Assembly (NCBI GenBank): GCA_963705205.1
Contig: CAVPJG010000001.1
Span: 3,871-67,870, forward strand
Direction: 5' to 3'
Length of the DNA stretch: 64,000 nucleotides
Source of the DNA: an uncultured Thermoleophilia bacterium
GTDB taxonomy: Bacteria > Actinomycetota > Thermoleophilia > UBA2241
Shown: one piece after another, positions 11,411-40,237 of the stretch
How positions within the stretch are numbered: position 1 is the stretch's first letter
Layout: each line of letters starts with the position of its first letter
The notes under the pieces: model-generated
Told to the model about the DNA's origin: nothing
The model's input: only the letters and a program-made list of their open reading frames with translations
Database searches by the model: none
Program-made: the position numbers and the translations under genes

Positions 11411-14400
11411 AGGTTCTCTCTCCCAGGGATCGACGACCTGTCGTGAGACACACGAGAGGCGAGTATAGCATCGAGCGTAGCCTCGACCCACCGCAGCAGC
11501 GGAGGCTCCTGGCCCTCCCGATGGACGGCCAGCACATGGTCCTTCTTGAAGTACGTGGCACGCCCGTTGGAGGTTCGCAGACGGGTCGCAGAAGCGTCGT
11601 CGAGGTCGACGCCGTCGACCTGCAGGCGGCTGCCGCGGTAGGCGGCGGCGGTTGCTCCCAGCTCCGCCGCCTTGATACGGATCGCCTGCAGCGTGATGAG
11701 GTTCTCCACCGGCTCGGGCGGCGCGCCGAAGCGATCGGCGAGCTCGGCGCGCACGTCGCCGAGCTCGCCGATCGTGCGCGCCCGGGCGATGCGCCGGTGC
11801 GCGTCGATCTTGGTCGCCTCGTAGGCGATGTACTCCGGCGGCACGTAGGCGGTGACCGGCATGTCGACGCGGACCGGCGCGGCGATCGCCGCCTCCTCGC
11901 CGGCCAGCTCGTTCACCGCCTCCTCGAGCATCTGCGCGTACATCTCGAAGCCGACCGCGGCGACGTGCCCGCTCTGCTCGTCGCCGAGCAGGTTGCCGGC
12001 GCCGCGGATCTCAAGGTCGGCCATGGCGATCTTGAACCCGGCGCCAAGGTCGGTGTGGTCGCTCAGCGTGGTCAGACGCGCGGCCGCCTCGCTCGTCAGC
12101 AGGTCGTCACTCGGGTAGAGCAGGTAGGCGAACGCGTGCGCGTCGCTGCGCCCGATGCGCCCGCGGATCTGGTACAGCTGCGCGAGGCCGAGCATGTCGG
12201 CGCGCTCCACGACGAGCGTGTTGGCGGTCGGGATGTCGATCCCACTCTCGATGATCGACGTGGTCACCAGCACGTCCGCCTCTCCGGCGAGGAACGCCAG
12301 CATGACCTTCTCGAGCGTGCGTTCGGCCATCTGCCCGTGCGCCACCAGGACGCGCGCGCCGGGCGCGAGCGCGCGCACGTGCTCGGCCGCCCGGTCGATC
12401 GTCTCCACGCGGTTGTGCAAGTAGAAAGCCTGGCCCTCGCGGGCCAGCTCCTTCTCGATGGCGACGCGCACCAGGTCGTCCCTGTACTCGCCGATGTAGG
12501 TGCGGATCTCGTGCCGGCCGCGCGGGGCCGTCTCGATCACCGAGATGTCGCGGATGCCGCTCAGGCTCATCTGCAGGGTGCGCGGGATGGGCGTGGCCGA
12601 GAGGCTCATCACGTCCACCTGGAGCTTGAGGTTGCGCAGCAACTCCTTCTGGCGCACGCCGAAGCGCTGCTCCTCGTCGACGATGACCAGGCCCAGTTCC
12701 TTCGGCCGCACGTCCGTGCTCAGCAGGCGGTGCGTCCCGACCAGCACGTCGATCTCCCCCCGGCTGAACGCGGCGAGCGTCCTGCGCTGCTCGGCGCCGC
12801 TGCGGAACCGGGAGACCATGCCCACCCTGACCGGCAGGTCGGCGAAGCGCTCCTCGAACGTCATCCAGTGCTGCTCGGCCAGGATGGTCGTCGGGACGAG
12901 GACGAGCGTCTGCTTCCCGGCCTCAGCGGCCTTGAACGCCGCGCGCAGCGCGACCTCGGTCTTGCCGTAGCCGACGTCACCGCAGATGAGGCGGTCCATC
13001 GGGTGCGGCGCCTCCAGGTCGTTCTTGACCTCGTCGATGGCCTCCGCCTGGTCGTCGGTCTCCTCGTAGGGAAAGGCGTCCTCCAGGCGGCGCATGAGCT
13101 CGCCGTCGGGCGGGAACGCGAAGCCGGGGATGGCCTGGCGGGCGGCGTACAGCTGAAGCAGCTCGCCGGCCATCTCGACCACGGCCGTGCGCGCCCGCGT
13201 CTTGACCGTCTGCCAGTGCGTGCCGCCGAGCTTGTCGAGCGACGGCGTCGCGCCCGACGCTCCTACGTAGCGGCTGACCTTGCCGATCTGGTCGTGCGGG
13301 ACGAAGACGCGGTCGTCGCCGCGGAACTCGAGGAGGAGGTAGTCGCGGGTGACGCCGGCGACCGTGCGCGTCTCGATTCCGGCGAAGCGGGCGATGCCGT
13401 GGTCCTCGTGGACCACGTGGTCGCCCGGGCGAACGTCGAAGAAGGTGGTGAGCCGCGTGCCGGCCGCGAAGCGGCGCTCACGCGGCGCCGCGCGGATGAG
13501 CGCGCGCTCGTTGACGACGGCGAGCTTGAGGTCCTCGGCCACGAAGCCGTCGCGCAGGGGCGCGGCGACGAAGTAGAGCCCGGGGGCCGCCTCGCCGCCC
13601 CGGGCCAGCTGCCCCGGCGTCACGACCTCGGCCGAGATGTTGCGCAGCCGGAAGGTGGCGCGCTCGGCCTCGCCCTCGTGGCGGAACACGACGAACAGGC
13701 GGTAGTCGTCGTTGACCAGCCGGACGAGGTCGCGCTCGGCGCTGGCGAGGTCGCGCGCCGCGAACTGCGGGCGAGAGGCGGCGAACTGGAGCGGCTGGTC
13801 GCGCTGCACGACGTCGAGGTGCAGCGCCTTGGTGAGGAGGGCGCGGGCATCGGCGAGCGGCACATACAGCCGCTCGCGCAGGCCCGCGCCCGGCACGGCC
13901 GCCGCCACCTCGCCGTCGAAGTCGGCGAGCGCGCGGTAGGTCTCGTCCGGGTTGAAGACGGCCCAGCCGGCGCCCGCCGCGGCGGCCAGTGCGCCCAGTG
14001 TCGTGAAGCGGCCGGCCAGCGCCGCGAGCGCGCGCACGGCCGCGCGGCGCTCGAGCTCCTCCGGCGTCTCCTCGCGGCCCTCGCGCTCCCACTCGGCCAC
14101 TGCCTGATGCAGCCCGCTGACGTACTCCGGCTGGGACGCGTCGGCCTCGAACGCGGCGAACACGGTCGCCGCCTCGATCTCGCCCGTCGTCCGCTGCGAG
14201 TAGATGGAGAAGGTACGCAGGCGCTCGACCTCGTCCCCCCACAACTCCACGCGCAGGGGGTCGCCGAGCGCGGGATAGACGTCGATGAGGCCGCCGCGTA
14301 CGGCGAACTCGCCGCGGGCGCGCACCTGCTCGATGCGCTGGTAGCCGAGCGCGGCGAGACGGGCGACCGCGCCGTCGAAGTCGATCTCATCGCCGGGAGA

Positions 14401-30140: not shown

Positions 30141-30518
30141 CTACGCCGCCGCCTCGACCGTCGCGACGGCGGCGTTGATCTGCGCGACGACCGCAGCGGG
30201 ATCGTCCACCTCGAGCACCAGGCGGTCAAACGCCTCGTCCACGAGATCGATCACGACCGCCTTCTCGGGATGGTGGACATCCCAGAACTCGTGGCGGCCG
30301 TGCACCAGCATCGAGCCGGCGGCGACGGCGTAGCCGAGCAGCAGGTCGGTGCGGCCCGCCCCGAGCCAGGGGCCGTGCCGGTGGACATAGGGGTCCAGCC
30401 GCGCGCCCGCGACGTGCGCGAGCGGTACGATCATGCGCCTGCGGGTCGTCCAGACGATGTCGAGTCCGTGCAGCGTCACCCTCAGGCGCCCCTGATCTAT
30501 GTCGATGTGGGTGTTCAT
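30141..30518 (-). CDS. Hypothetical protein (small beta-rich, bacterial PH-like)
   Basis: Fills the gap between convergent genes; typical codon bias; EFWDVH.PEKAVVIDL...RLVLEVDDP. Confidence 0.7.
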   Translation of the reverse strand: MNTHIDIDQGRLRVTLHGLDIVWTTRRRMIVPLAHVAGARLDPYVHRHGPWLGAGRTDLLLGYAVAAGSMLVHGRHEFWDVHHPEKAVVIDLVDEAFDRLVLEVDDPAAVVAQINAAVATVEAAA

Positions 30519-30621: not shown

Positions 30622-32077
30622 TCACGCCGGCAGCAGCACGGTGAACACGGAGCCCTGGCCGACGACGCTGGTCGCCTCGAGGCGGCCGCCGGCGCGCTCG
30701 ACCAACCGCTTCACGATGGAGAGCCCCAGCCCGTTACCCTCGAGCTCGCGCGTCTCGTCACGCTTCTCGCGGAAGAACTCGTCCCAGAGCCGCGCCAGGT
30801 TCTCCTCCTTGATGCCGATGCCGGTGTCGGCCACGTCCAGCCGCAGCCATCCGTCCTCCACCGCGACGCGCACCGTGACGGTGCCACCGTCGCGGTTGTA
30901 CTTGACGGCGTTACCGACAAGGTTGCTGAGCACGAGGCGGAGGTCATCGGGCCGGATGAGGGCGGGCGGCAGGCCCGCGGCGAGGTCCGTGGTCACCGTC
31001 ACGCCGCGCTGCGCGCCCCCTTCGCCGGCGAGCTCCACGACCTCGTGCAGTACGGGCGCGAGCGGCACCAGCTCGGGCTCCTCACCCTCGGGCGCCTGCT
31101 CGCTGCGAGCAAGCGTGAGCAGGTCGCGGATCAGCTCGACCAAGTTATCGATGCGGTGGTCGGCGCGGGCGATCATCGGCAGGTACGGGCCGAGGTCCTC
31201 GCCGAGGCTCTTGTCGGTGACCACCTCGAGGAGGCCCTTGATGGACCCGAGCGGGCTCTTGAGCTCGTGCACCATCATACGGATGAACTTCTGCTTCTCC
31301 ATGGCGAGGCGCCGCACCTCGCTGATGTCGCTGAGGGTGAGGATGCGGCCGCGCTCCTGCCCGCCTTCGTCGCGGAAGGTGACGATACTCGCCATGTACG
31401 TCCGTTCATCGAGCTCGAGCTGGCGCACGGTGCGGTCCTTGGCCGGCGCGGCCAGCTGCTCGCAGAGCGGCGCCAGGGCGCCGCCGCCGAGCAAGTCCTG
31501 CGCCGGCCGCATGAGCACCTCATCCTCTCCCAGCCCGAGCAGCTCGAGCATGGGCGGGTTGGCGAGCGCGACGTCGCCGGCCCGGTTCACGACGAGCACG
31601 GCGTCCCGCAGGGAGCTCACCAGCGAGTGCGTCTGCGTCTTCTCCTCGGCGAGCGCGAGCAGGCTCGCCTCGTGCTCCGCGCGCAGGCGCTCCGCCTCCG
31701 TGCGCGCCTGCTTGTGGCGCAGCAGCGTCGCCACCACGCCCTCGAGGTCGTCGGGGCTGAACGGCTTGGGGAGGAAGAAGTCCACGCCCTGGCGCGTGGC
31801 GGCGATGGCGGTGTCGATGTTGGCGTAGGCCGTGATCATGCAGACCATGGCGTCGCAGCCGCGCTGTTTCATGGTCTGCAGCAGGCTGAGGCCGTCGGTG
31901 TCGGGCAGCCGGTAGTCGAGGAGGGCGACGTCGTAGCTGCGCTCGCCGAGGGCCCGCGAGCGCGCCGGCGCCGTCGCCGGCCTCCCCCACCTCGTAGCCC
32001 TCCATCTCGAGGATCGTGCGGATGCCGCTGCGCACACCGTACTCGTCGTCGACGATGAGGATGCTGCCCTCGGCCAT
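30622..32077 (-). CDS. Hybrid sensor kinase REC-PAS-HisKA-HATPase, interrupted by a +1 frameshift near 31953-31955
   Basis: ILIVDDE in one frame; LLDYRLPD...FLPKPF, PAS (DAVLVVN...ANP), HELKSPL, NLVGNAVKY, DTGIGI, GNGLGL in the next; length 1456 = 3n+1. Confidence 0.9.
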
Positions 32078-32101
32078 GGTCGTCTCCTCTCCCGGCCCGC
32101 G

Positions 32102-32530
32102 TCAGACGGCGGCCGGATCGCCGGCCGTTGCCGCGGCTCCGGCGAGTTCCTCGATGACGGCGAGCACCTGCGCGCCGGTCACCGGCTTGTCCAGGAACCG
32201 GGCGAGCCGGGACCACTCGCGCAGCCCCGTGGCCTCGCCGTCGAACCGCGTGCCGGTCTCGGCGGCGACGCCGCTGAGCATGACGAGCGGGATGTGGCCG
32301 AGCCGCTCGTCCTTGCCGATGCGGTACCCGAGCCGGAAGCCGTCGTCGACGTGCTCCATCATCAGGTCCAGGAAGATGATCGCCGGGGTCTCGGTCTCCA
32401 GGAGCACCAGCGCCGCGTCGGGGGACTCGGCGATGAGCACGCGGTAGCCGCGCGCCTCCAGGTACACCTGCTTGCTCTCGAGGAAGTCCCGGTCGTCGTC
32501 CACGAACAGGACAGTCGCCTGGGTCGTCAT
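32102..32530 (-). CDS. Single-domain response regulator
   Basis: LFVDDD, FLDLMM (phospho-Asp), MLSG, FLDKPV; no output domain. Confidence 0.93.
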   Translation of the reverse strand: MTTQATVLFVDDDRDFLESKQVYLEARGYRVLIAESPDAALVLLETETPAIIFLDLMMEHVDDGFRLGYRIGKDERLGHIPLVMLSGVAAETGTRFDGEATGLREWSRLARFLDKPVTGAQVLAVIEELAGAAATAGDPAAV

Positions 32531-34584
32531 GCTGTCGCTCCCTTGTCGTCGATCAGCGCGGTCTGCCCGCCGACGTGGGTGCTGGGGAGCTCCACGTGGA
32601 AGGTCGTGCCGCGATCGGTCTCGGTGTCGAACCAGATGGTGCCGTTGTGCATCTTCACGATGCCGTAGCTGATGGGCAGGCCGAGGCCCGTGCCCTTGCC
32701 GATGCTCTTGGTGGTGAAGAAGGGCTGGAACACCTTGTCGCGAGCGCTCTGGGGGATGCCGGCGCCCTCGTCACTCACGGCGATGTGGATGCGCCCGCTG
32801 CCCTCGACCTCGTGGGCGCTCACGCGCACCGTGCCGTCACGGTCCTCCATCGCCTCGACCCCGTTCTTGACCAGGTTCACCAGCACCTGGGTCATCTGGT
32901 CGCGGTCGAGGTCGGCGCGCAGGCCGGGCTCCACGTCGACGACGAGGTCGACGACGTGGCCGTTGGGCTGCACCGTGGCGGCGGCGGAGTCGACGGCCTG
33001 CTGGAGCACGTCGTGTACGTCCACGCTGCCGAGGTGCACGCGGCTCTGCCGCGCGAAGTCGAGCAGGTTGCCGACGATCTTCTTGCAGCGCTCGCTCTCC
33101 TCCGCGACCAGCTTGAGGTCGTGATCGAGGTCATCGCGGTCCTGGAGCTTCTTCCCCAGGATGTGCGTGTACAGCAGGATCGTGCTGAGCGGGTTGTTGA
33201 GCTCATGCGCGACGCCGGCCGCCATCTGGCCCATGCTCGCCAGCTTCTCCGTGTTGATGATGTGCCGATGCACGTCGCGCATCTCGCTCCACGGGACGTT
33301 GAGCTCGATGCAGACGCGCTCGGCCTGGTCGATCATGAACGGCAGGCACATGGCGTCCTCGGCCATGCCGGAGTACACGGCGACCGCCTTGGCGCGACAG
33401 GTGGGATAGCCGCAGGCGCCGCAGTTGAGCTCGTCCTCCGGGAAGAACTTGTTGGTGCGCGCGAGGATCTCGCGGATCTCGTCCTCGGTCGGCTCCTCCA
33501 GGCGCTGGTCGTCCGGCGTGTAGACGCGGCTCAGGTCGAGACCGGGGAAGCGGGCGGCCAGAGGGTCGTCGAGCTCGCTGCGCACCTCCACGGCCGCCTC
33601 GGCCTCGCGGCGCCGGCACTCGGCCACGTACTCTCCGACGCGCCGCTTGCGGAGCAGGCCGGGCTCGGAGGAGCTGATGCCCGGCCCGCAGTAGCAGCCG
33701 CGGCACATGAGGGCCTCCACGAGCAGGGTCTGACCCGTGTCGGCCTCGCTCAGGCTGTCCAGCACCTCGACGGTCTCGTCGTGGCCGCTCACGACGAGGA
33801 CGTCGGGGTCGAGCATGCCTCGGTCCATGCCGGCGCTCTCGAGCAGGCCGCCGGGGAGCGGGAACACCCGCGCCCGGCCGGCAGCCGGCTCGTCCCACGC
33901 GGCCTCCGAGGCCGTCGCCGGATCCGCTCCTCGCGCCGCCAGCAGGCGGTGCGCCTCCTGCAGCGTCAGGACCTCATCGATCACGGGGTCCAGCAGCGGG
34001 TCCCGTGCCTCGGCCTTCTTGGCCACGCACGGGCCCACGAAGACGCAGCGCACGTCCTCTCCGTAGAGCTCCTTGACGGCCATCGCGGTCGCGATCATCG
34101 GAGAGACGATGGGCACGAGCCTGTCGGTCAGCTCGGGGTGGTACTTGCGCACGTACTCGGCGACCGCCGGACACGCGGTGGCGATGTGCACGCCCTGCGG
34201 GTTCTCGTGCAGGTACTCGGCGTAGGCCCGGCTCACCAGGTCGGCGCCCTGGGCGACCTCCACGACGTAGTCGAACCCGGCCGCTCTGAAGGCGCCGACG
34301 AGCTGCCCGGCGCGCACGCTGAAGCCCGCGGGGAAGGACGGCGCGAGCAGGGCGGCCACGGGCGCGTCCTCCTCGAGCAACCACGTCGCGCGCTCCAGCC
34401 CGCTCAGGTAGGACTTGGCGTTCTGGGAGCAGACGAGGGTGCAGTTGCCGCAGGCGATGCAGCGCCCGTCGACGACGAACGCCTGTCCGTCCTCGATGCG
34501 GATCGCCTCCGCCGGGCAGTCACGCACACACGTGTAGCACCGGCGGCAGTTCTGCTTGATCGTGGTGATGATCGCTCCGCTCAT
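32527..34584 (-). CDS. Sensory-type [FeFe]-hydrogenase fused to a histidine kinase (group C1-like)
   Basis: 2[4Fe-4S] (CRRCYTCVRDCP, CIACGNCTLVC); H-domain APSF, ATACP, GPCVAKKAE, EALMCRGCYCGPG; Cx2Cx4Cx16C FeS domain; AHELNNPL H-box, NLVKN, DEGAGI, FFTTK, GTGLGL. Confidence 0.93.
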   Translation of the reverse strand: MSGAIITTIKQNCRRCYTCVRDCPAEAIRIEDGQAFVVDGRCIACGNCTLVCSQNAKSYLSGLERATWLLEEDAPVAALLAPSFPAGFSVRAGQLVGAFRAAGFDYVVEVAQGADLVSRAYAEYLHENPQGVHIATACPAVAEYVRKYHPELTDRLVPIVSPMIATAMAVKELYGEDVRCVFVGPCVAKKAEARDPLLDPVIDEVLTLQEAHRLLAARGADPATASEAAWDEPAAGRARVFPLPGGLLESAGMDRGMLDPDVLVVSGHDETVEVLDSLSEADTGQTLLVEALMCRGCYCGPGISSSEPGLLRKRRVGEYVAECRRREAEAAVEVRSELDDPLAARFPGLDLSRVYTPDDQRLEEPTEDEIREILARTNKFFPEDELNCGACGYPTCRAKAVAVYSGMAEDAMCLPFMIDQAERVCIELNVPWSEMRDVHRHIINTEKLASMGQMAAGVAHELNNPLSTILLYTHILGKKLQDRDDLDHDLKLVAEESERCKKIVGNLLDFARQSRVHLGSVDVHDVLQQAVDSAAATVQPNGHVVDLVVDVEPGLRADLDRDQMTQVLVNLVKNGVEAMEDRDGTVRVSAHEVEGSGRIHIAVSDEGAGIPQSARDKVFQPFFTTKSIGKGTGLGLPISYGIVKMHNGTIWFDTETDRGTTFHVELPSTHVGGQTALIDDKGATA

Positions 34585-34594
34585 GTGACCTGCC

Positions 34595-36313
34595 TCAGAC
34601 TGCCGCGGCTTTGGGGCTGCGGTCGGTATAGCCGCGGTGCAGGAGCCGGTGGCTGACCTCTCCGAGCGGACGCCCGAGCAGGTCCTCGTACAGCGCCTGC
34701 ACCTCGGCGTTCTCGTGAGAGCGGCGGGTGCGGGAGCGCCTGTCCACTTCGTAGAGGCGCTCCAGCCGCTCCTTGACCGCCTGCGTGTCGGTGGCGTAGG
34801 GCTGCCCGCCACCGCCGATGCAGCCGCCCGGGCAACTCATGACTTCGACGAAGTGCAGAGCGGCATCGGGTGCCAGGAGCCCGTCCACGGACTCCTTGAC
34901 CCGCCCGAGGCCGTTGACCACGGCCAGGTTGAGCCGCGCGTCGCCGGCGGTGACGGTGAAGCGGCGCACACCCTCGGCGCCGCGGGCCTCGGCGACCTTG
35001 GGGCCGCCCTCGAGCTCCTGGCCCGCCACCAGCATGTACGCGGTGCGCACGGCCGCCTCCATCACGCCGCCGCTGCCGGCGAACAGGCGCCCGGCGCCGG
35101 TCGCCTCGGCGAACGGCGCGTCGAGCGGCGCCGTCTCGGAGAAGCGCGCGAAGTCCACGCCGAAGCGGCCCCAGAGGTGCTCCAGCTCGCGCGTCGTGAG
35201 CACGTAGTCCACGTCGCTGAGGTCCTGCGCCTCGAACTTCTTGGCCGTGCACGGCATGAGCGAGACGACCACCAGGCGCTTGCCGCCGAGGTCGGTGTGC
35301 TTCGGGTAGATCTCGCGGATCAGCGCGCCGGCCATCTGCTGCGGGCTCTTGCACGTGCTCAGATGCGGGATCAAGTCGGGACGGTGCGTCTCGACGAAGT
35401 TCACCCAGGCTGGGGAGCAGCTGGTGAACATGGGCAGCACGCCGCCGTTCTGGATGCGGTCGAGCAGCTCGGAGCCCTCTTCCATGATGGTGAGGTCGGC
35501 GGCGAAGCTGGTGTCGAAGACGGCGTCGAAGCCGACACGCTTCAGCGCGGCGGCAAGTCGCTCGAGCATGACGCGGACACCCTCGCTCTTGCTGTGACCC
35601 TCGAGCAGGGTCGCCGGCACCGCCGGAGCGACCTGTGCCACGACGACGGCGCCGGGGTCGGCCAGCGCGTTCACGACCTCGTCCACCTGGTCGCGCTCGA
35701 CGATCGCGCCCGTCGGGCACACGCGGGCGCACTGACCGCAGTAGACGCACTCGCTCACGTTGAGGCCGATGGCGAAGCCGGGTGCGATCTTCGTCTTGAA
35801 CCCGCGCCCGGCGAAGTCGATCGCGCCCACGCCCTGCACGTCGTGGCAGGTGGTGACGCAGCGGCCGCAGAGCACGCACTTGTTGGGGTCGCGCCAGAGC
35901 GCCGGGGAGCTGATGTCCACCGGGTGCTGTTTCACAGCGCCGACGTAGCGACGCTGGCGGGCGCCGACATCCGCGGCCAGCGTCGCCAGCTCGCAGTCGC
36001 CGCCGCGCACGCAGCTCAGGCAGTCCTGCGGATGGCTAGCGATGAGCAGTTCCATGATCGCGCGCCGCGCCTTGAGCACGCGCGGCGTGTGCGTGTGCAC
36101 AGCCATACCCTCCGTCACCTCGAGCGTGCAGCTGGTGAGCAGACGCGGGCTGCCCTCGACCTCGACGACGCACATGCGGCAGGAGGCCGCCGGGCTCGGG
36201 GCCCAATCCAGGGAGCACAGGTGCGGGATGTCGACGCCGGCACGCTGCGCGGCCTTGAGCACGGTCTCGCCGCGCGCGGCCTCGATCTCTTTACCGTTGA
36301 TGGTCAGATTCAT
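34595..36313 (-). CDS. hydA: [FeFe]-hydrogenase catalytic subunit (group A3, HydA)
   Basis: N-terminal [2Fe-2S], His-ligated cluster (HPQDCLSC...C), 2[4Fe-4S]; P1 FTSCSPAW, P2 MPCTAKKFE, P3 EVMSCPGGCIGGGGQP; C-terminal small-subunit motif SHEN. Real start is MNLTING at 36313. Confidence 0.96.
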   Translation of the reverse strand: MNLTINGKEIEAARGETVLKAAQRAGVDIPHLCSLDWAPSPAASCRMCVVEVEGSPRLLTSCTLEVTEGMAVHTHTPRVLKARRAIMELLIASHPQDCLSCVRGGDCELATLAADVGARQRRYVGAVKQHPVDISSPALWRDPNKCVLCGRCVTTCHDVQGVGAIDFAGRGFKTKIAPGFAIGLNVSECVYCGQCARVCPTGAIVERDQVDEVVNALADPGAVVVAQVAPAVPATLLEGHSKSEGVRVMLERLAAALKRVGFDAVFDTSFAADLTIMEEGSELLDRIQNGGVLPMFTSCSPAWVNFVETHRPDLIPHLSTCKSPQQMAGALIREIYPKHTDLGGKRLVVVSLMPCTAKKFEAQDLSDVDYVLTTRELEHLWGRFGVDFARFSETAPLDAPFAEATGAGRLFAGSGGVMEAAVRTAYMLVAGQELEGGPKVAEARGAEGVRRFTVTAGDARLNLAVVNGLGRVKESVDGLLAPDAALHFVEVMSCPGGCIGGGGQPYATDTQAVKERLERLYEVDRRSRTRRSHENAEVQALYEDLLGRPLGEVSHRLLHRGYTDRSPKAAAV

Positions 36314-36324
36314 GGTCGTTCCTC

Positions 36325-38346
<2,022 letters not shown>

Positions 38347-38347
38347 G

Positions 38348-38848
38348 TCAGGCCGCGGCCTCGTCCTCGGCGTCCTTCTGGTCCGCTGCCTCGACTTCGT
38401 CCAGCAGCGCGTCGAGCCTCTCGCTGGTGAGGTGGCCGTAGAACTCGCCGTCCAGCCTGATCACGGGGGCGATCGAGCAGGCGCCCAGGCACGCGACGCT
38501 GATGACGGTGTAGCGGCCGTCGGCCGAGTTGCCGTCGTCCCGCAGCTTGAGCCGGCGCTTCAGGTGCTGGGCGAGCGCGAGGCTCTGCTTGACGTGACAC
38601 GCCGTTCCCCGGCAGAGCTCGATCACGTGCTCGCCCAGTGGAGCGAAGCGGAACTGGTTGTAGAACGTCGCGACGCCGTAGATGCGGCTGACCGGTGTCT
38701 CCAGGGCCTCGGCCACGAGGACCATGGCCTCGGTGGAGAGAAACCCCTCCTCCGCCTGGATCTCCTGCAGCAGCGGGATCATCTGCTCGCGCGTGAGCTG
38801 CTCCCTGCGGCCGGCGATGATGGCTTCGGCGGCGGTCACGGCCGTCAC
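38348..38848 (-). CDS. hydC: [2Fe-2S] hydrogenase subunit (NuoE-like, HydC)
   Basis: IPLLQEIQ, YGVATFYNQF, CRGTAC, ACLGACSIAP; GTG start overlaps the upstream stop (GTGA). Confidence 0.94.
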   Translation of the reverse strand: MTAVTAAEAIIAGRREQLTREQMIPLLQEIQAEEGFLSTEAMVLVAEALETPVSRIYGVATFYNQFRFAPLGEHVIELCRGTACHVKQSLALAQHLKRRLKLRDDGNSADGRYTVISVACLGACSIAPVIRLDGEFYGHLTSERLDALLDEVEAADQKDAEDEAAA

Positions 38849-39267
38849 GCGCCCTTCGTGCCGGCCTCGTCCGCGTCCGCCAGCAGCTCGGCGATCGCGG
38901 CGGCCAGATCGGCCAGCTTGACCGGCTTCTCCAGGAACTTGGCCGCCGGCCACTCCCGGTACATCATCGGCTCGAAGACGTGGGTCTTGGTGTCGAGCTC
39001 CTTGGTGAACCCGCTCATGATGATGATGGGGATGTCCGCCGTCTCGGGGTCTTCGCGCAGCTTGAAGGCCACGTTGAACCCGTCGGTGTCGTGATCCATC
39101 ATGATGTCCAGCAGGATGAGGTCCGGCCGCCTGGCCGCGAGGCGCTCCCGCCCCTCCACACCACTGTGGGCGGTGTCGACCTCGTAGCCGCGCGCCTCCA
39201 GGAACGCCTTGACGCCCGCGACGAGGTCGCGGTCGTCGTCCACCATCAGGATCCGCTTCGCCTTCAT
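38845..39267 (-). CDS. Single-domain response regulator
   Basis: ILMVDDD, LLDIMM, IMSG, FLEKPV; GAGGAGGAG SD; no output domain. Confidence 0.93.
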   Translation of the reverse strand: MKAKRILMVDDDRDLVAGVKAFLEARGYEVDTAHSGVEGRERLAARRPDLILLDIMMDHDTDGFNVAFKLREDPETADIPIIIMSGFTKELDTKTHVFEPMMYREWPAAKFLEKPVKLADLAAAIAELLADADEAGTKGA

Positions 39268-39320
39268 TACTCTCCTCCTCTGTTCCGCGGCATACTCGGT
39301 CTCCGCCGGTGCCAGCCGTT

Positions 39321-39353
39321 TAGTTATCGTCTTCACAGTGAACCCATTCACAG
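39321..39353. promoter_or_regulatory. Two overlapping Rex operator-like sites
   Basis: CAGTGAA-CCCA-TTCACAG (39336-39353) and a weaker TAGTTAT-CGTC-TTCACAG (39321-39338) versus the known consensus TTGTGAA-N4-TTCACAA; AT-rich patch. Confidence 0.75.
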
Positions 39354-39398
39354 TAGCCTCGAAAAAAACACAACCTTCCAGAGTGTCCTGACCGTGCC

Positions 39399-40130
39399 TC
39401 ACTCCGTCATCCCCCGCGCCGGCTCACCCGGCTCGGCCGACGACGCCTGTGCGTCGGCCTCGCTGCGCGCCAGGAACGACAGCATCTCGAGCTTGGAGGT
39501 GATGTCCGTCTCCTCGACGAAGCACCCCGCCGGAGCGCTGACGCGCTTGGGCACGAAGTTGAGGACCGCGTGCACACCGGCGGCGCAGACCCGGTCGACG
39601 AGCGTCTGCAGCCCCTCGGGCCGGGACGCGAGGATCGCCATGTGCACGTCGAACTCGCGCAGCACTGTCTCCAGCTGGTCGACGTGGTAGCAGCGGCGGC
39701 CGGCGAGCACGCGGCCCACCTTCTCGCTGTCGACATCGAAGGCCACGGCGATGTGGAAGCCGCGCTCCTCGAACCCGCGGTAGGAAAGGAGCGCGCGGCC
39801 CAGGTCGCCGACGCCGAACAGGGCGACACTCTGGCTCTCGTCGGTGCCGAGGATACGGCTGATGGTGCGGCCCATCTGGTACACGTTGTAGCCGCGGGAG
39901 ATGTTGCCGAAGGTGCCGAAGCTGGCGAGGTCGCGGCGGAGCTGGGCCGGCGTGACGCTGACCAGCTCGGCGAGGTCGTGGGAGTGGATGTTCTCGATCC
40001 CGTCGCGGTCGAGCTCCTCCAGCACCTTGCGATAGATGCTCAGCCGCTCCACGGTCTGCAGCGAGACCCGCTTGGCCGGCCGCTTCGGCGGGGTCGTGGC
40101 GTCAAAGCCGGCCTGTCCACTGGTGATCAA
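39399..40130 (-). CDS. rex: Redox-sensing transcriptional repressor Rex
   Basis: TVERLSIY, PAQLRRDLASFG...GYNV wHTH; Rossmann GVGDLGRAL..Y; LNFVP. Start moved to TTG at 40130 (GGGAGG SD). Confidence 0.95.
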   Translation of the reverse strand: MITSGQAGFDATTPPKRPAKRVSLQTVERLSIYRKVLEELDRDGIENIHSHDLAELVSVTPAQLRRDLASFGTFGNISRGYNVYQMGRTISRILGTDESQSVALFGVGDLGRALLSYRGFEERGFHIAVAFDVDSEKVGRVLAGRRCYHVDQLETVLREFDVHMAILASRPEGLQTLVDRVCAAGVHAVLNFVPKRVSAPAGCFVEETDITSKLEMLSFLARSEADAQASSAEPGEPARGMTE

Positions 40131-40153
40131 GGTTCCTCCCACGGTTCCTTCGA

Positions 40154-40171
40154 CTGTGATTGTATTCACAG
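40154..40171. promoter_or_regulatory. Rex operator upstream of rex (autoregulation)
   Basis: CTGTGAT-TGTA-TTCACAG, near-perfect palindrome with N4 spacer. Confidence 0.8.
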
Positions 40172-40237
40172 TAGTCGACGGCTGTCAACCGGGACGTGAG
40201 CGACGGGTATGGGAGGAGAAGTGCGGCCGCGCGCAGG

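Follow-up and report, generated by a model that had tools for sequence, protein, structure and literature searches.

A Rex-linked HydABC hydrogenase cassette with an H-cluster-domain histidine kinase in a soil or sediment actinobacterium, and its relatives across bacteria

We examined a stretch of 64,000 nucleotides (C1:3871-67870, hereafter the window) from the genome of an uncultured Thermoleophilia bacterium, an actinobacterium of soil or sediment, in which an eight-gene cassette occupies positions 30622-40171 of the minus strand. By Pfam the order is rex, REC1, hydC, hydB, hydA, a gene that joins an [FeFe]-hydrogenase H-cluster domain to a histidine kinase (the sensor kinase), REC2 and a REC-PAS-kinase gene, REC denoting a response-regulator receiver domain. 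The cassette is both real and conserved, and cassettes of its type have already been described; what is new here is a subfamily marked by REC1 and a PAS insert, an alternation between Rex and an NtrC-type regulator among related cassettes, and the fusion of Rex to a receiver. To judge from operators and domain content, it is rather probable that Rex represses rex and the operon behind it, that NADH relieves this repression, and that H2 is a further input, read by the co-transcribed sensor kinase and passed on by a relay with several receivers.

An earlier note on this DNA had listed the eight genes in this order, with the strand unstated, and the Pfam assignments bear out the genes and their order and place all of them on the minus strand. 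The note also described the junctions as tight or overlapping. This is correct from REC1 through to the last kinase gene: the REC1 stop and the hydC start overlap in GTGA, 1 nucleotide separates hydC from hydB, 11 separate hydB from hydA and 10 hydA from the sensor gene, the sensor stop and the REC2 start overlap in ATGA, and 24 nucleotides lie between REC2 and the last kinase gene. It is not correct for rex and REC1, whose gap of 131 nucleotides is the widest in the cassette. The genome amounts to 2.61 Mb in 15 contigs and is rated 76.6% complete, and the G+C content of the window is about 70%. Domains were assigned by the Pfam and NCBIfam cut-offs, and nearest relatives by a search against solved structures.

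The eight genes and their spread

Judged by its domains and solved relatives, the product of hydCBA is an [FeFe]-hydrogenase of the HydABC, electron-bifurcating type. HydC (38348-38848) is a NuoE-like [2Fe-2S] subunit (Pfam 2Fe-2S_thioredx, 7.6e-44; NuoE/HoxE-like in NCBIfam), and HydB (36325-38346, 673 residues) is a NuoF-like flavoprotein with the Pfam domains Complex1_51K, SLBB, NADH_4Fe-4S and two Fer4, an N-terminal CCxxC prefix and a C-terminal domain for two [4Fe-4S] clusters. It aligns through residue 669 of 673 to the solved chains 7t2r_B (2.6e-198), 7q4v_B of Acetobacterium woodii and 8a6t_B of Thermoanaerobacter kivui, and this match to bifurcating enzymes takes in the C-terminal ferredoxin domain. 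The catalytic subunit HydA (34595-36313, 572 residues) carries Fer2_4, NADH-G_4Fe-4S_3, Fer4, Fe_hyd_lg_C (8.6e-77) and Fe_hyd_SSU. Its nearest solved relative is the electron-bifurcating HydA1 of T. kivui (8a6t_A, 5.8e-164), and the bifurcating HydA1 proteins of A. woodii and Thermotoga maritima are also among the best; it scores 422 bits with TIGR02512 (cut-off 406) and 695 bits with NF040763, which is below the cut-off of 765. This HydA architecture, with HydB and HydC encoded alongside, is the domain content of group A3 HydABC (BfuABC) enzymes. The L1 motif of HydA (35400-35420) reads T-S-C-S-P-A-W with one cysteine, where T. kivui HydA1 has T-S-C-C-P-S-W; in the alignment the single-cysteine form is shared by A. 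woodii HydA1 (chain 7q4v_A).

The sensor kinase (32527-34584, 685 residues; our protein P0001) matches Fer4, Fe_hyd_lg_C (1.5e-40), PF04060 (1.3e-09), HisKA and HATPase_c, and is laid out as two N-terminal [4Fe-4S] motifs, then an H-cluster domain and a Cx2Cx4Cx16C motif, with HisKA and HATPase_c at the end. With residue equivalence assigned by motif, following PMC8163306, L1 reads T-A-C-P, with alanine in place of the proton-relay cysteine, L2 reads G-P-C-x-A-K-K-x-E, and L3 reads C-x-G-C. The cysteines of L1, L2 and L3 and those of the C-terminal Cx2Cx4Cx16C are invariant in six sequences of 44-100% identity, the H-box histidine is intact 46 residues after the last cysteine, and H460 is invariant. 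The kinase half is nearest to kinases of the ZraS/AtoS type. Pfam finds no PAS domain in the sensor; the PAS that follows the C-terminal cluster in proteins of the M2f/TmHydS type is absent, and HisKA and HATPase_c stand there. The architecture is common to all 120 of the best database hits listed, and the named ones among them come from Thermoleophilia metagenome bins. The [4Fe-4S] motifs, the L1 alanine, the Cx2Cx4Cx16C motif and the intact H-box histidine support the reading of this protein as a HydS-like sensor. The earlier note had linked it to group C1, which the HydDB table gives as 'histidine kinase-linked (putative)' (PMC5037454); the HydDB runs reported in the text of PMC11406978 place the kinase-domain sensors beside bfuA in C3, not C1.

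REC1 (38845-39267, 140 residues) and REC2 (32102-32530, 142 residues) are receiver-only proteins with a Pfam Response_reg domain. By eye, REC1 retains the phospho-acceptor aspartate, the DD pair, the serine and the lysine; REC2 has a conserved insert between beta4 and beta5 that is common to receivers of its type, the universal partner-type receivers, which are found with or without rex. Both kinases match HisKA and HATPase_c in Pfam, which supplies the kinase side of a two-component pair. The third receiver heads the second kinase, and Pfam identifies no DNA-binding response regulator encoded in the cassette. With neither such a regulator nor a receiver with an output domain encoded, the description of the locus as a self-contained circuit is not supported.

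The hybrid kinase gene (30622-32077) has the domains REC-PAS-HisKA-HATPase_c in Pfam, as had been claimed for it, and its product is nearest to kinases of the PhoR/PnpS/WalK type in NCBIfam, but its receiver is split by a frameshift in this assembly. One extra base lies in GGGCCC at 31950-31955; the Response_reg model is matched at its positions 1-36 in frame with the ATG at 32077, and at its positions 37-108 in the open reading frame 30622-32037. As the parts lie in a single frame in all 12 orthologous loci, and contigs of near-identical strains from two public studies have one letter fewer at 31957, the frameshift belongs to this assembly alone; run X1 gave no coverage of the site. These comparisons make an assembly error the probable cause; alternatively, the frameshift may mark a pseudogene at the level of the strain. 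If the latter were the case, then the frameshift, together with the missing HydE, HydF and HydG discussed below, could mean that the system is decaying in this organism and that the locus no longer signals. We consider this very unlikely, as the remaining genes are intact, with 80-95% identity to those of relatives, the in-frame version occurs in the near-identical strains of both studies, other assemblies of the genus show the split hits typical of indel errors, and in this incomplete genome the maturase neighborhood of the relatives is missing as a block. A further difference between strains is found at 32068-32142, over the tail of REC2 and the start of the kinase gene, where contigs from four public runs have 11-15 other letters for 69-73 nucleotides, so that strains vary in the REC2 C-terminus or in the spacer. 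Contigs of run X12, whose label as RNA is a guess, cover part of the locus and are not taken as a sign of transcription.

A scan of one genome per species confirmed at least 581 stretches of this kind among 600 candidates. We analyzed the best 80 of the 581 and compared their open reading frames with the proteins of the window; 79 have a clean sensor reading frame. These loci are the closest of the 581 and are mutually related, and counts taken from them are descriptive. The gene order, whose conservation the earlier note had put forward for checking, is kept in full in 11 of 12 orthologous loci, one of which comes from another family. In the twelfth (L016, in genome G039) hydC and hydB are gone and hydA is down to 6%, a remnant of 33 residues, and rex, REC1, the sensor, REC2 and the hybrid kinase are kept. 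The core of rex, hydCBA, sensor kinase, REC and REC::kinase is found again, among the best 80 loci, under 14 different phylum labels. Sixty-seven of these loci extend at least 2 kb downstream of the sensor: the gene next to the sensor encodes a stand-alone REC in 49 of them, and one of the next three genes encodes a REC-kinase hybrid in 60. Of the 57 loci that extend at least 4.8 kb upstream, 51 have hyd genes immediately before the sensor and 36 have rex upstream. The sensor tree of the 80 loci is at odds with taxonomy, and on this evidence the cassette looks horizontally mobile. Within the genus, a sensor orthologue of at least 80% identity occurs in 15 of 36 genomes, and many genomes have a paralogue of about 45% identity. 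With this and the 14 phylum labels, the view that the system is unusual in an actinobacterium cannot be upheld.

REC1 and the PAS insert of the hybrid kinase mark one subfamily, which comprises 21 of the 80 sensors (15 from Actinomycetota, 4 from Myxococcota and 2 unlabelled rows, the window included) and is split off by a long branch with a support of 100 in the Shimodaira-Hasegawa-like approximate likelihood ratio test (SH-aLRT). Among the best 80 loci, REC1-type orthologues occur in 18, all of them in this subfamily of Actinomycetota and Myxococcota.

Rex, its operators and the alternative regulator

The rex gene (39399-40130) encodes a redox-sensing repressor of 243 residues from a TTG start, and its reading frame is open up to 40169. 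The product has the winged-helix N-domain and the Rossmann NAD(H) domain of Rex (Pfam Put_DNA-bind_N and CoA_binding), the GxGxxG motif reads G-V-G-D-L-G by eye, and cognate operator-type sites lie at the locus. It scores 202 bits with the NCBIfam Rex subfamily NF003995 (cut-off 126), and among solved structures Thermus Rex is the closest (3ikv, 1.4e-33). Another rex paralogue in the genome, on contig C9 (G000:C9:58314-58925), is 37% identical, so the copy at this locus looks specific to the cassette.

A perfect Rex box, TGTGAATACAATCACA (TGTGA-N6-TCACA), lies at 40155-40170 and overlaps the -10 hexamer of a promoter-like site (TTGACA-18-TACAAT, from 40188 to 40159, 11 of 12 positions matched); the two together span 40155-40188. 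The position of the box implies a putative autoregulation of rex. A box with one mismatch, TGTGAATGGGTTCACT, is found at 39337-39352, about 85 nucleotides before the REC1 ATG, and is overlapped by a second box with two mismatches (39322-39337), 70 nucleotides before the REC1 start; this tandem (39322-39352) is the candidate operator of the REC1-hydCBA-sensor operon. Rex boxes are thus present near both rex and REC1, as the earlier note had claimed. The perfect box before rex is kept in 11 of the 12 orthologous loci, as is, at unchanged distance, the one-mismatch box before REC1. In the aligned orthologous intergenic regions the half-sites are fixed and the spacers variable, and across phyla a box is found at the start of rex in 26 of 31 Rex-type cassettes. 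The conservation of both operators and of the box at the start of rex supports the claim that Rex gates transcription.

The window contains three Rex boxes with at most one mismatch, where 0.70 are expected, a number that was reached by 4 of 100 shuffles. The third of them, with one mismatch, spans the hydA stop and the sensor start (34584-34599) and was taken as a chance occurrence. In the whole 2.6-Mb assembly there are five sites within one mismatch of TGTGAA-N4-TTCACA, two of which are at this locus. Three more near-consensus boxes occur elsewhere in the genome, including C9:48989 and C15:251672, and one distant box lies about 1.2 kb from a cluster of NuoE/NuoF/NuoG-like genes on C15. A T7 run followed by CGA (39353-39375) stands just upstream of the tandem boxes and is kept in 12 of 13 aligned intergenic regions. 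No stem is predicted before the run, and the terminator scan after rex found no terminator-like site; the run may be part of a promoter, the remains of a terminator or neither. Beyond the Rex boxes, the T-run and a 5' leader block at the level of the genus, the aligned intergenic regions contain no further conserved motif.

Cassettes that lack rex often have another regulator. Ten receiver proteins next to rex-less cassettes were examined, and six of these have the domains REC-Sigma54_activat-HTH_8 and one has REC-GerE. A hidden Markov model built from the six proteins was used to find NtrC-type regulators in the 52 loci with at least 6.5 kb upstream: 35 have rex only, seven have an NtrC-type regulator only, ten have neither, and none has both. 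The sequence TGGCAC-N5-TTGC stands before hydC in five of six NtrC-type cassettes, none of which has a Rex box, and a sigma-54-like site was found in 1 of 31 Rex-type cassettes; neither type of site occurs in any of 11 loci of the 'neither' class. Rex with its boxes and the NtrC-type regulator with its sigma-54 promoter are two designs that never occur together in these loci. In the NtrC-type design the relay, by analogy, almost certainly activates its own hydrogenase operon. In the genome of the window no DNA-binding domain of sigma-54 was found, and its AAA+ matches are weak and generic.

The relay and its possible endpoints

We envisage four steps. At a low NADH/NAD+ ratio Rex would occupy the box over the rex -10 hexamer and the tandem boxes before REC1, and would keep rex and the operon REC1-hydC-hydB-hydA-sensor-REC2-REC.PAS.kinase switched off, until a rise in NADH releases it; the operators argue strongly for this step. 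Domain anatomy and published work on HydS suggest that the sensor would bind H2 at its H-cluster, whose turnover we propose to be slow as the proton-relay cysteine is missing. A conformational signal would then pass from the four-cysteine cluster domain to the fused dimerization and histidine-phosphotransfer helix and switch the balance between kinase and phosphatase activity. In the third step, three receivers may take up phosphoryl groups, namely the adjacent REC2, its paralogue REC1 and the one at the head of the REC-PAS-kinase, and in the fourth the relay would feed back on the transcription of its own operon. That the relay within the sensor is conformational rather than redox is assumed; a study from 2026 counters the favored cluster-reduction mechanism of sensory hydrogenases, as set out in its text (PMC13104023). 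Covariation between sensor, receiver and hybrid kinase (mutual information with average product correction; 50-67 loci, effective number about 44-53) was tried as a guide to kinase-receiver pairing and gave noise: the top covarying pairs are scattered and show no enrichment at the phosphotransfer helix.

As the single likeliest endpoint in this genome, though at less than even odds, we tentatively regard Rex, which phosphorylated REC1 or REC2 would modulate so that H2 could override the NADH-driven derepression. An unlinked response regulator comes next and HydABC itself after that, the remainder falling to other endpoints or to none. The horizontally mobile look of the cassette favors an output that is carried within it. 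Extended to Rex-type cassettes in general, the idea that the relay ends on Rex, with a phosphorylated receiver binding Rex and being covalently fused to it in some Gaiellales-like lineages, is somewhat more doubtful. If true, one repressor would integrate NADH/NAD+ and H2 at a single operator, and Rex would serve as the effector domain of a response regulator, a functional alternative to the NtrC-type regulator and its sigma-54 promoter.

The linkage of rex and REC1 is close. REC1 follows rex in every locus of the subfamily that has REC1, and it stays with rex where hydCBA has been lost (L016, L038 and L047). In L036 and L049 Rex and REC1 form one reading frame with all three Pfam domains, and among the 120 best database hits there are 11 clusters of Rex::REC1 fusions (351-394 residues), the other 109 being plain Rex. 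Rex and REC1 are collinear in 9 of 401 genomes of the class, in three without an intervening stop and in six with one or two. The fusions are of two kinds, with different linkers; on the fusion tree two changes of the label 'fused' are needed, and 1% of the bootstrap trees allow a single change. In a lineage with a short spacer of about 40-60 nucleotides between rex and REC1 (L113-L121, family f4), REC1 lies in the frame of rex in all eight loci read, despite stops and varied spacer lengths; this may be due to chance, to shared descent or to selection for occasional read-through. The Bacteroidales have the order sensor-REC-rex with a spacer of 12 nucleotides, and L072 lacks the second kinase. 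A complex prediction for a Rex dimer with REC1, made from separate alignments and with no controls, scored 0.00 against a mark of 0.32, and weighs neither way.

Several observations count against the model as a whole or against its endpoint on Rex. Fusions are rare, stop codons stand between rex and REC1 in six of the nine collinear cases, and a ribosome-binding site precedes the REC part in all fusion-type cases, so the fusions may be neutral losses of a stop; a single origin of the fusion is compatible with the well-supported branches alone. REC2 occurs with or without rex, and its conserved surface therefore cannot be specific to Rex. The related genomes are not independent, so the counts given above overstate the support, and the REC-PAS-kinase is frameshifted in this assembly. 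H2 sensing by sensory [FeFe]-hydrogenases is still termed putative in the literature, and the C-terminal cluster of the group D model enzyme is reported not to be reduced by H2 (PMC13104023). Finally, no HydE, HydF or HydG reaches the NCBIfam cut-off in this genome with its rated completeness of 76.6%.

For the missing maturases, the simplest reading is that a block is absent from the incomplete assembly, as in relatives of the genus the maturase genes adjoin a second, paralogous sensor locus, and that locus is missing here too; hydG, hydF and hydE are present in four of five relatives examined. Genome G039, rated 100% complete, has two sensor-kinase loci (L016 and L027) and no HydE, HydF or HydG match. 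Either the contig with its maturases was left unbinned or its sensors function without an H-cluster. The second possibility leads to an alternative explanation of the sensor, namely that it reads not H2 but the redox state of ferredoxin or of the electron pool of the hydrogenase, through three [4Fe-4S] sites or a cofactor-less H-domain. The absence of maturase genes here and in G039 would fit, as would the L3 cysteines, which are spaced CxxC in the sensor where the canonical spacing is CxxxC. For some group C enzymes, moreover, the 2024 survey could barely trace the canonical motifs of the H-cluster (PMC11406978). However, this explanation is improbable, and more so than either of the two endpoints weighed below, as the L1, L2 and L3 cysteines are invariant over 44-100% identity, four of five relatives have hydG, hydF and hydE, in the genus beside the very locus that is missing here, and related HydS proteins are described as holding a functional H-cluster (PMC8163306).

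Instead of ending on Rex, the relay may end on an unlinked DNA-binding response regulator that is phosphorylated by the REC-PAS-kinase and may control alternative fermentation routes. If this were the case, then REC1 and REC2 would be only phosphate sinks or shuttles and Rex would act independently. The hybrid kinase is nearest to the PhoR, PnpS and WalK types, whose partners usually bind DNA; 45 of 52 cassettes have no DNA-binding response regulator, so that by convention a partner would be expected outside; and REC2 is conserved regardless of rex. Nevertheless, the cassette is patchy in its distribution under 14 phylum labels and its tree conflicts with taxonomy, and a module that depends on a partner in the host would be useless on arrival. 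The aligned promoters also offer no motif, beyond those named above, to which such a regulator might be assigned. We regard this endpoint as possible, if unlikely, and place it just behind Rex.

The stand-alone REC that overlaps hydC just upstream of it suggests another possibility, in which HydABC is the target to which phosphorylated REC1 or REC2 binds, so that electron flow is adjusted or shut off as H2 rises. A REC gene adjoins hydC in the same way in the paralogous loci of the genus (in L024 the REC, 11660-12034, overlaps hydC, 12031-12543), and a stand-alone REC immediately precedes and overlaps hydC also in second operons of Ignavibacteria. Moreover, the conserved insert of REC2-type receivers lies on the usual output face, and 51 of 57 sensor loci include hyd genes. 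However, rex, REC1, the sensor and the hybrid kinase persist in the cassettes that lack hydCBA (L016, L038, L047 and L071), overlaps of stop and start are common in compact operons of high G+C content, and no fusion of REC with a Hyd protein was seen, the only multi-domain hydC reading frames being hydC-hydB fusions. Docking on HydABC is therefore an unlikely endpoint, less likely than an unlinked regulator, and we continue to place Rex first.

Relation to described systems and further features of these loci

The earlier note took the locus for an undescribed system. This is not supported, as both hydCBA with a kinase-bearing BfuT (PMC11406978) and a proposal that combines Rex with HydS (PMC10084766) are in print. 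In its text, the 2024 survey describes a 'sub-type V' of BfuABC with a kinase-domain BfuT beside bfuA, from Hydrogenedentota, Caldithrix abyssi and some Bacteroidota (PMC11406978). There, as here, the gene next after hydC-hydB-hydA encodes an H-domain protein that also bears a histidine kinase domain; sub-type V is reported to be horizontally mobile, and the genome from which our locus L098 derives was among those of the survey. Unlike sub-type V as printed, the cassette of the window has rex with its operators, two stand-alone receivers and a REC-PAS-kinase. The main text of PMC11406978 has no occurrence of Rex or of response regulator, and its supplements may show neighbors.

Joint control by Rex and HydS, a proposal that dates from 2014, has been put forward for HydABC of Ruminococcus albus and for Hnd of Solidesulfovibrio fructosivorans, as summarized in PMC10084766. 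As in the system described here, Rex would bring in the NADH/NAD+ ratio and a sensory hydrogenase would bring in H2, and the two inputs would converge on a bifurcating hydrogenase. The mechanism of HydS in these organisms is given as not elucidated, whereas here the sensor is a kinase with dedicated receivers; in addition, Rex here is physically linked to a receiver gene and is fused to it in some relatives. The sensor shares with TmHydS (group C, M2f) and TamHydS (group D, M2e), as they are described in PMC8163306 and PMC13104023, the two [4Fe-4S] motifs and the lack of the proton-relay cysteine, as well as the C-terminal Cx2Cx4Cx16C and a gene position beside a trimeric bifurcating hydrogenase. 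The three differ in what follows: TmHydS runs on into PAS, TamHydS ends after the cluster domain, and the sensor of the window continues straight into HisKA and HATPase_c. No kinase-fused member of HydS has been characterized in the literature surveyed.

HoxBC-HoxJ-HoxA and HupUV-HupT-HupR are H2-sensing systems of the [NiFe] type. The likeness to [NiFe] hydrogenases of group 2b, 'histidine kinase-linked' (PMC5037454), is that a hydrogenase-like sensor that binds H2 controls a kinase governing hydrogenase expression. The version of the cassette with an NtrC-type regulator and a sigma-54 promoter matches this logic closely. The [NiFe] systems differ in metal center and fold, and in the window sensor and kinase are one polypeptide and the genome has no sigma-54/NtrC-type partner. 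In the 'four-component' system RedCDEF of Myxococcus, two kinases and several receivers without DNA-binding domains are encoded together; this is an analogy of circuit design only. The literature searched, which comprised few subscription journals and no supplements, did not yield the REC and REC-kinase partners, the alternation of Rex and NtrC-type regulators or the Rex::REC fusions, nor the subfamily marked by REC1 and PAS.

Whether 'sensory' [FeFe]-hydrogenases transmit a signal, and by what means, has been a question since they were named, and the two best-studied enzymes are without an enzymatic output. The natural fusion of an H-domain to a kinase reduces this question to a simple kinase assay with a direct biochemical read-out. 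The comparison of loci narrows the targets to a fixed set of partners (one stand-alone receiver and one receiver-kinase), two exclusive promoter designs and the Rex::receiver fusions. If Rex is the endpoint, this would be a new route by which a two-component relay controls a one-component metabolite sensor, and it would explain why fermenters do not induce an H2-evolving enzyme when H2 is already high.

The second sensor locus of the relatives (L022-L029, for example L024 at G002:C7:297600-311700) is without rex and was not found in the incomplete genome of the window. Its order is PHP, HATPase_c, hydC', a gene for a small 2Fe-2S protein, hydB'::Pyr_redox_2, hydA' and REC, followed by a sensor kinase about 45% identical to that of the window, a REC-kinase without PAS, REC, hydC'', hydB'' and hydA''. 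The hydB' product is fused to a GltD-like Pyr_redox_2 domain and has 1017 residues, and hydG, hydF and hydE lie a few kb away. In two loci from Myxococcota (L043 and L046), second operons downstream encode fusions of HydC-like and HydB-like proteins of 651-823 residues. In the window, an open reading frame of 125 residues (30141-30518, minus strand) lies 103 nucleotides downstream of the last kinase gene; it has no match in Pfam or NCBIfam, and a reading frame of 67-68% identity is kept at this position in 3 of the 12 orthologous loci (L010, L011 and L019).

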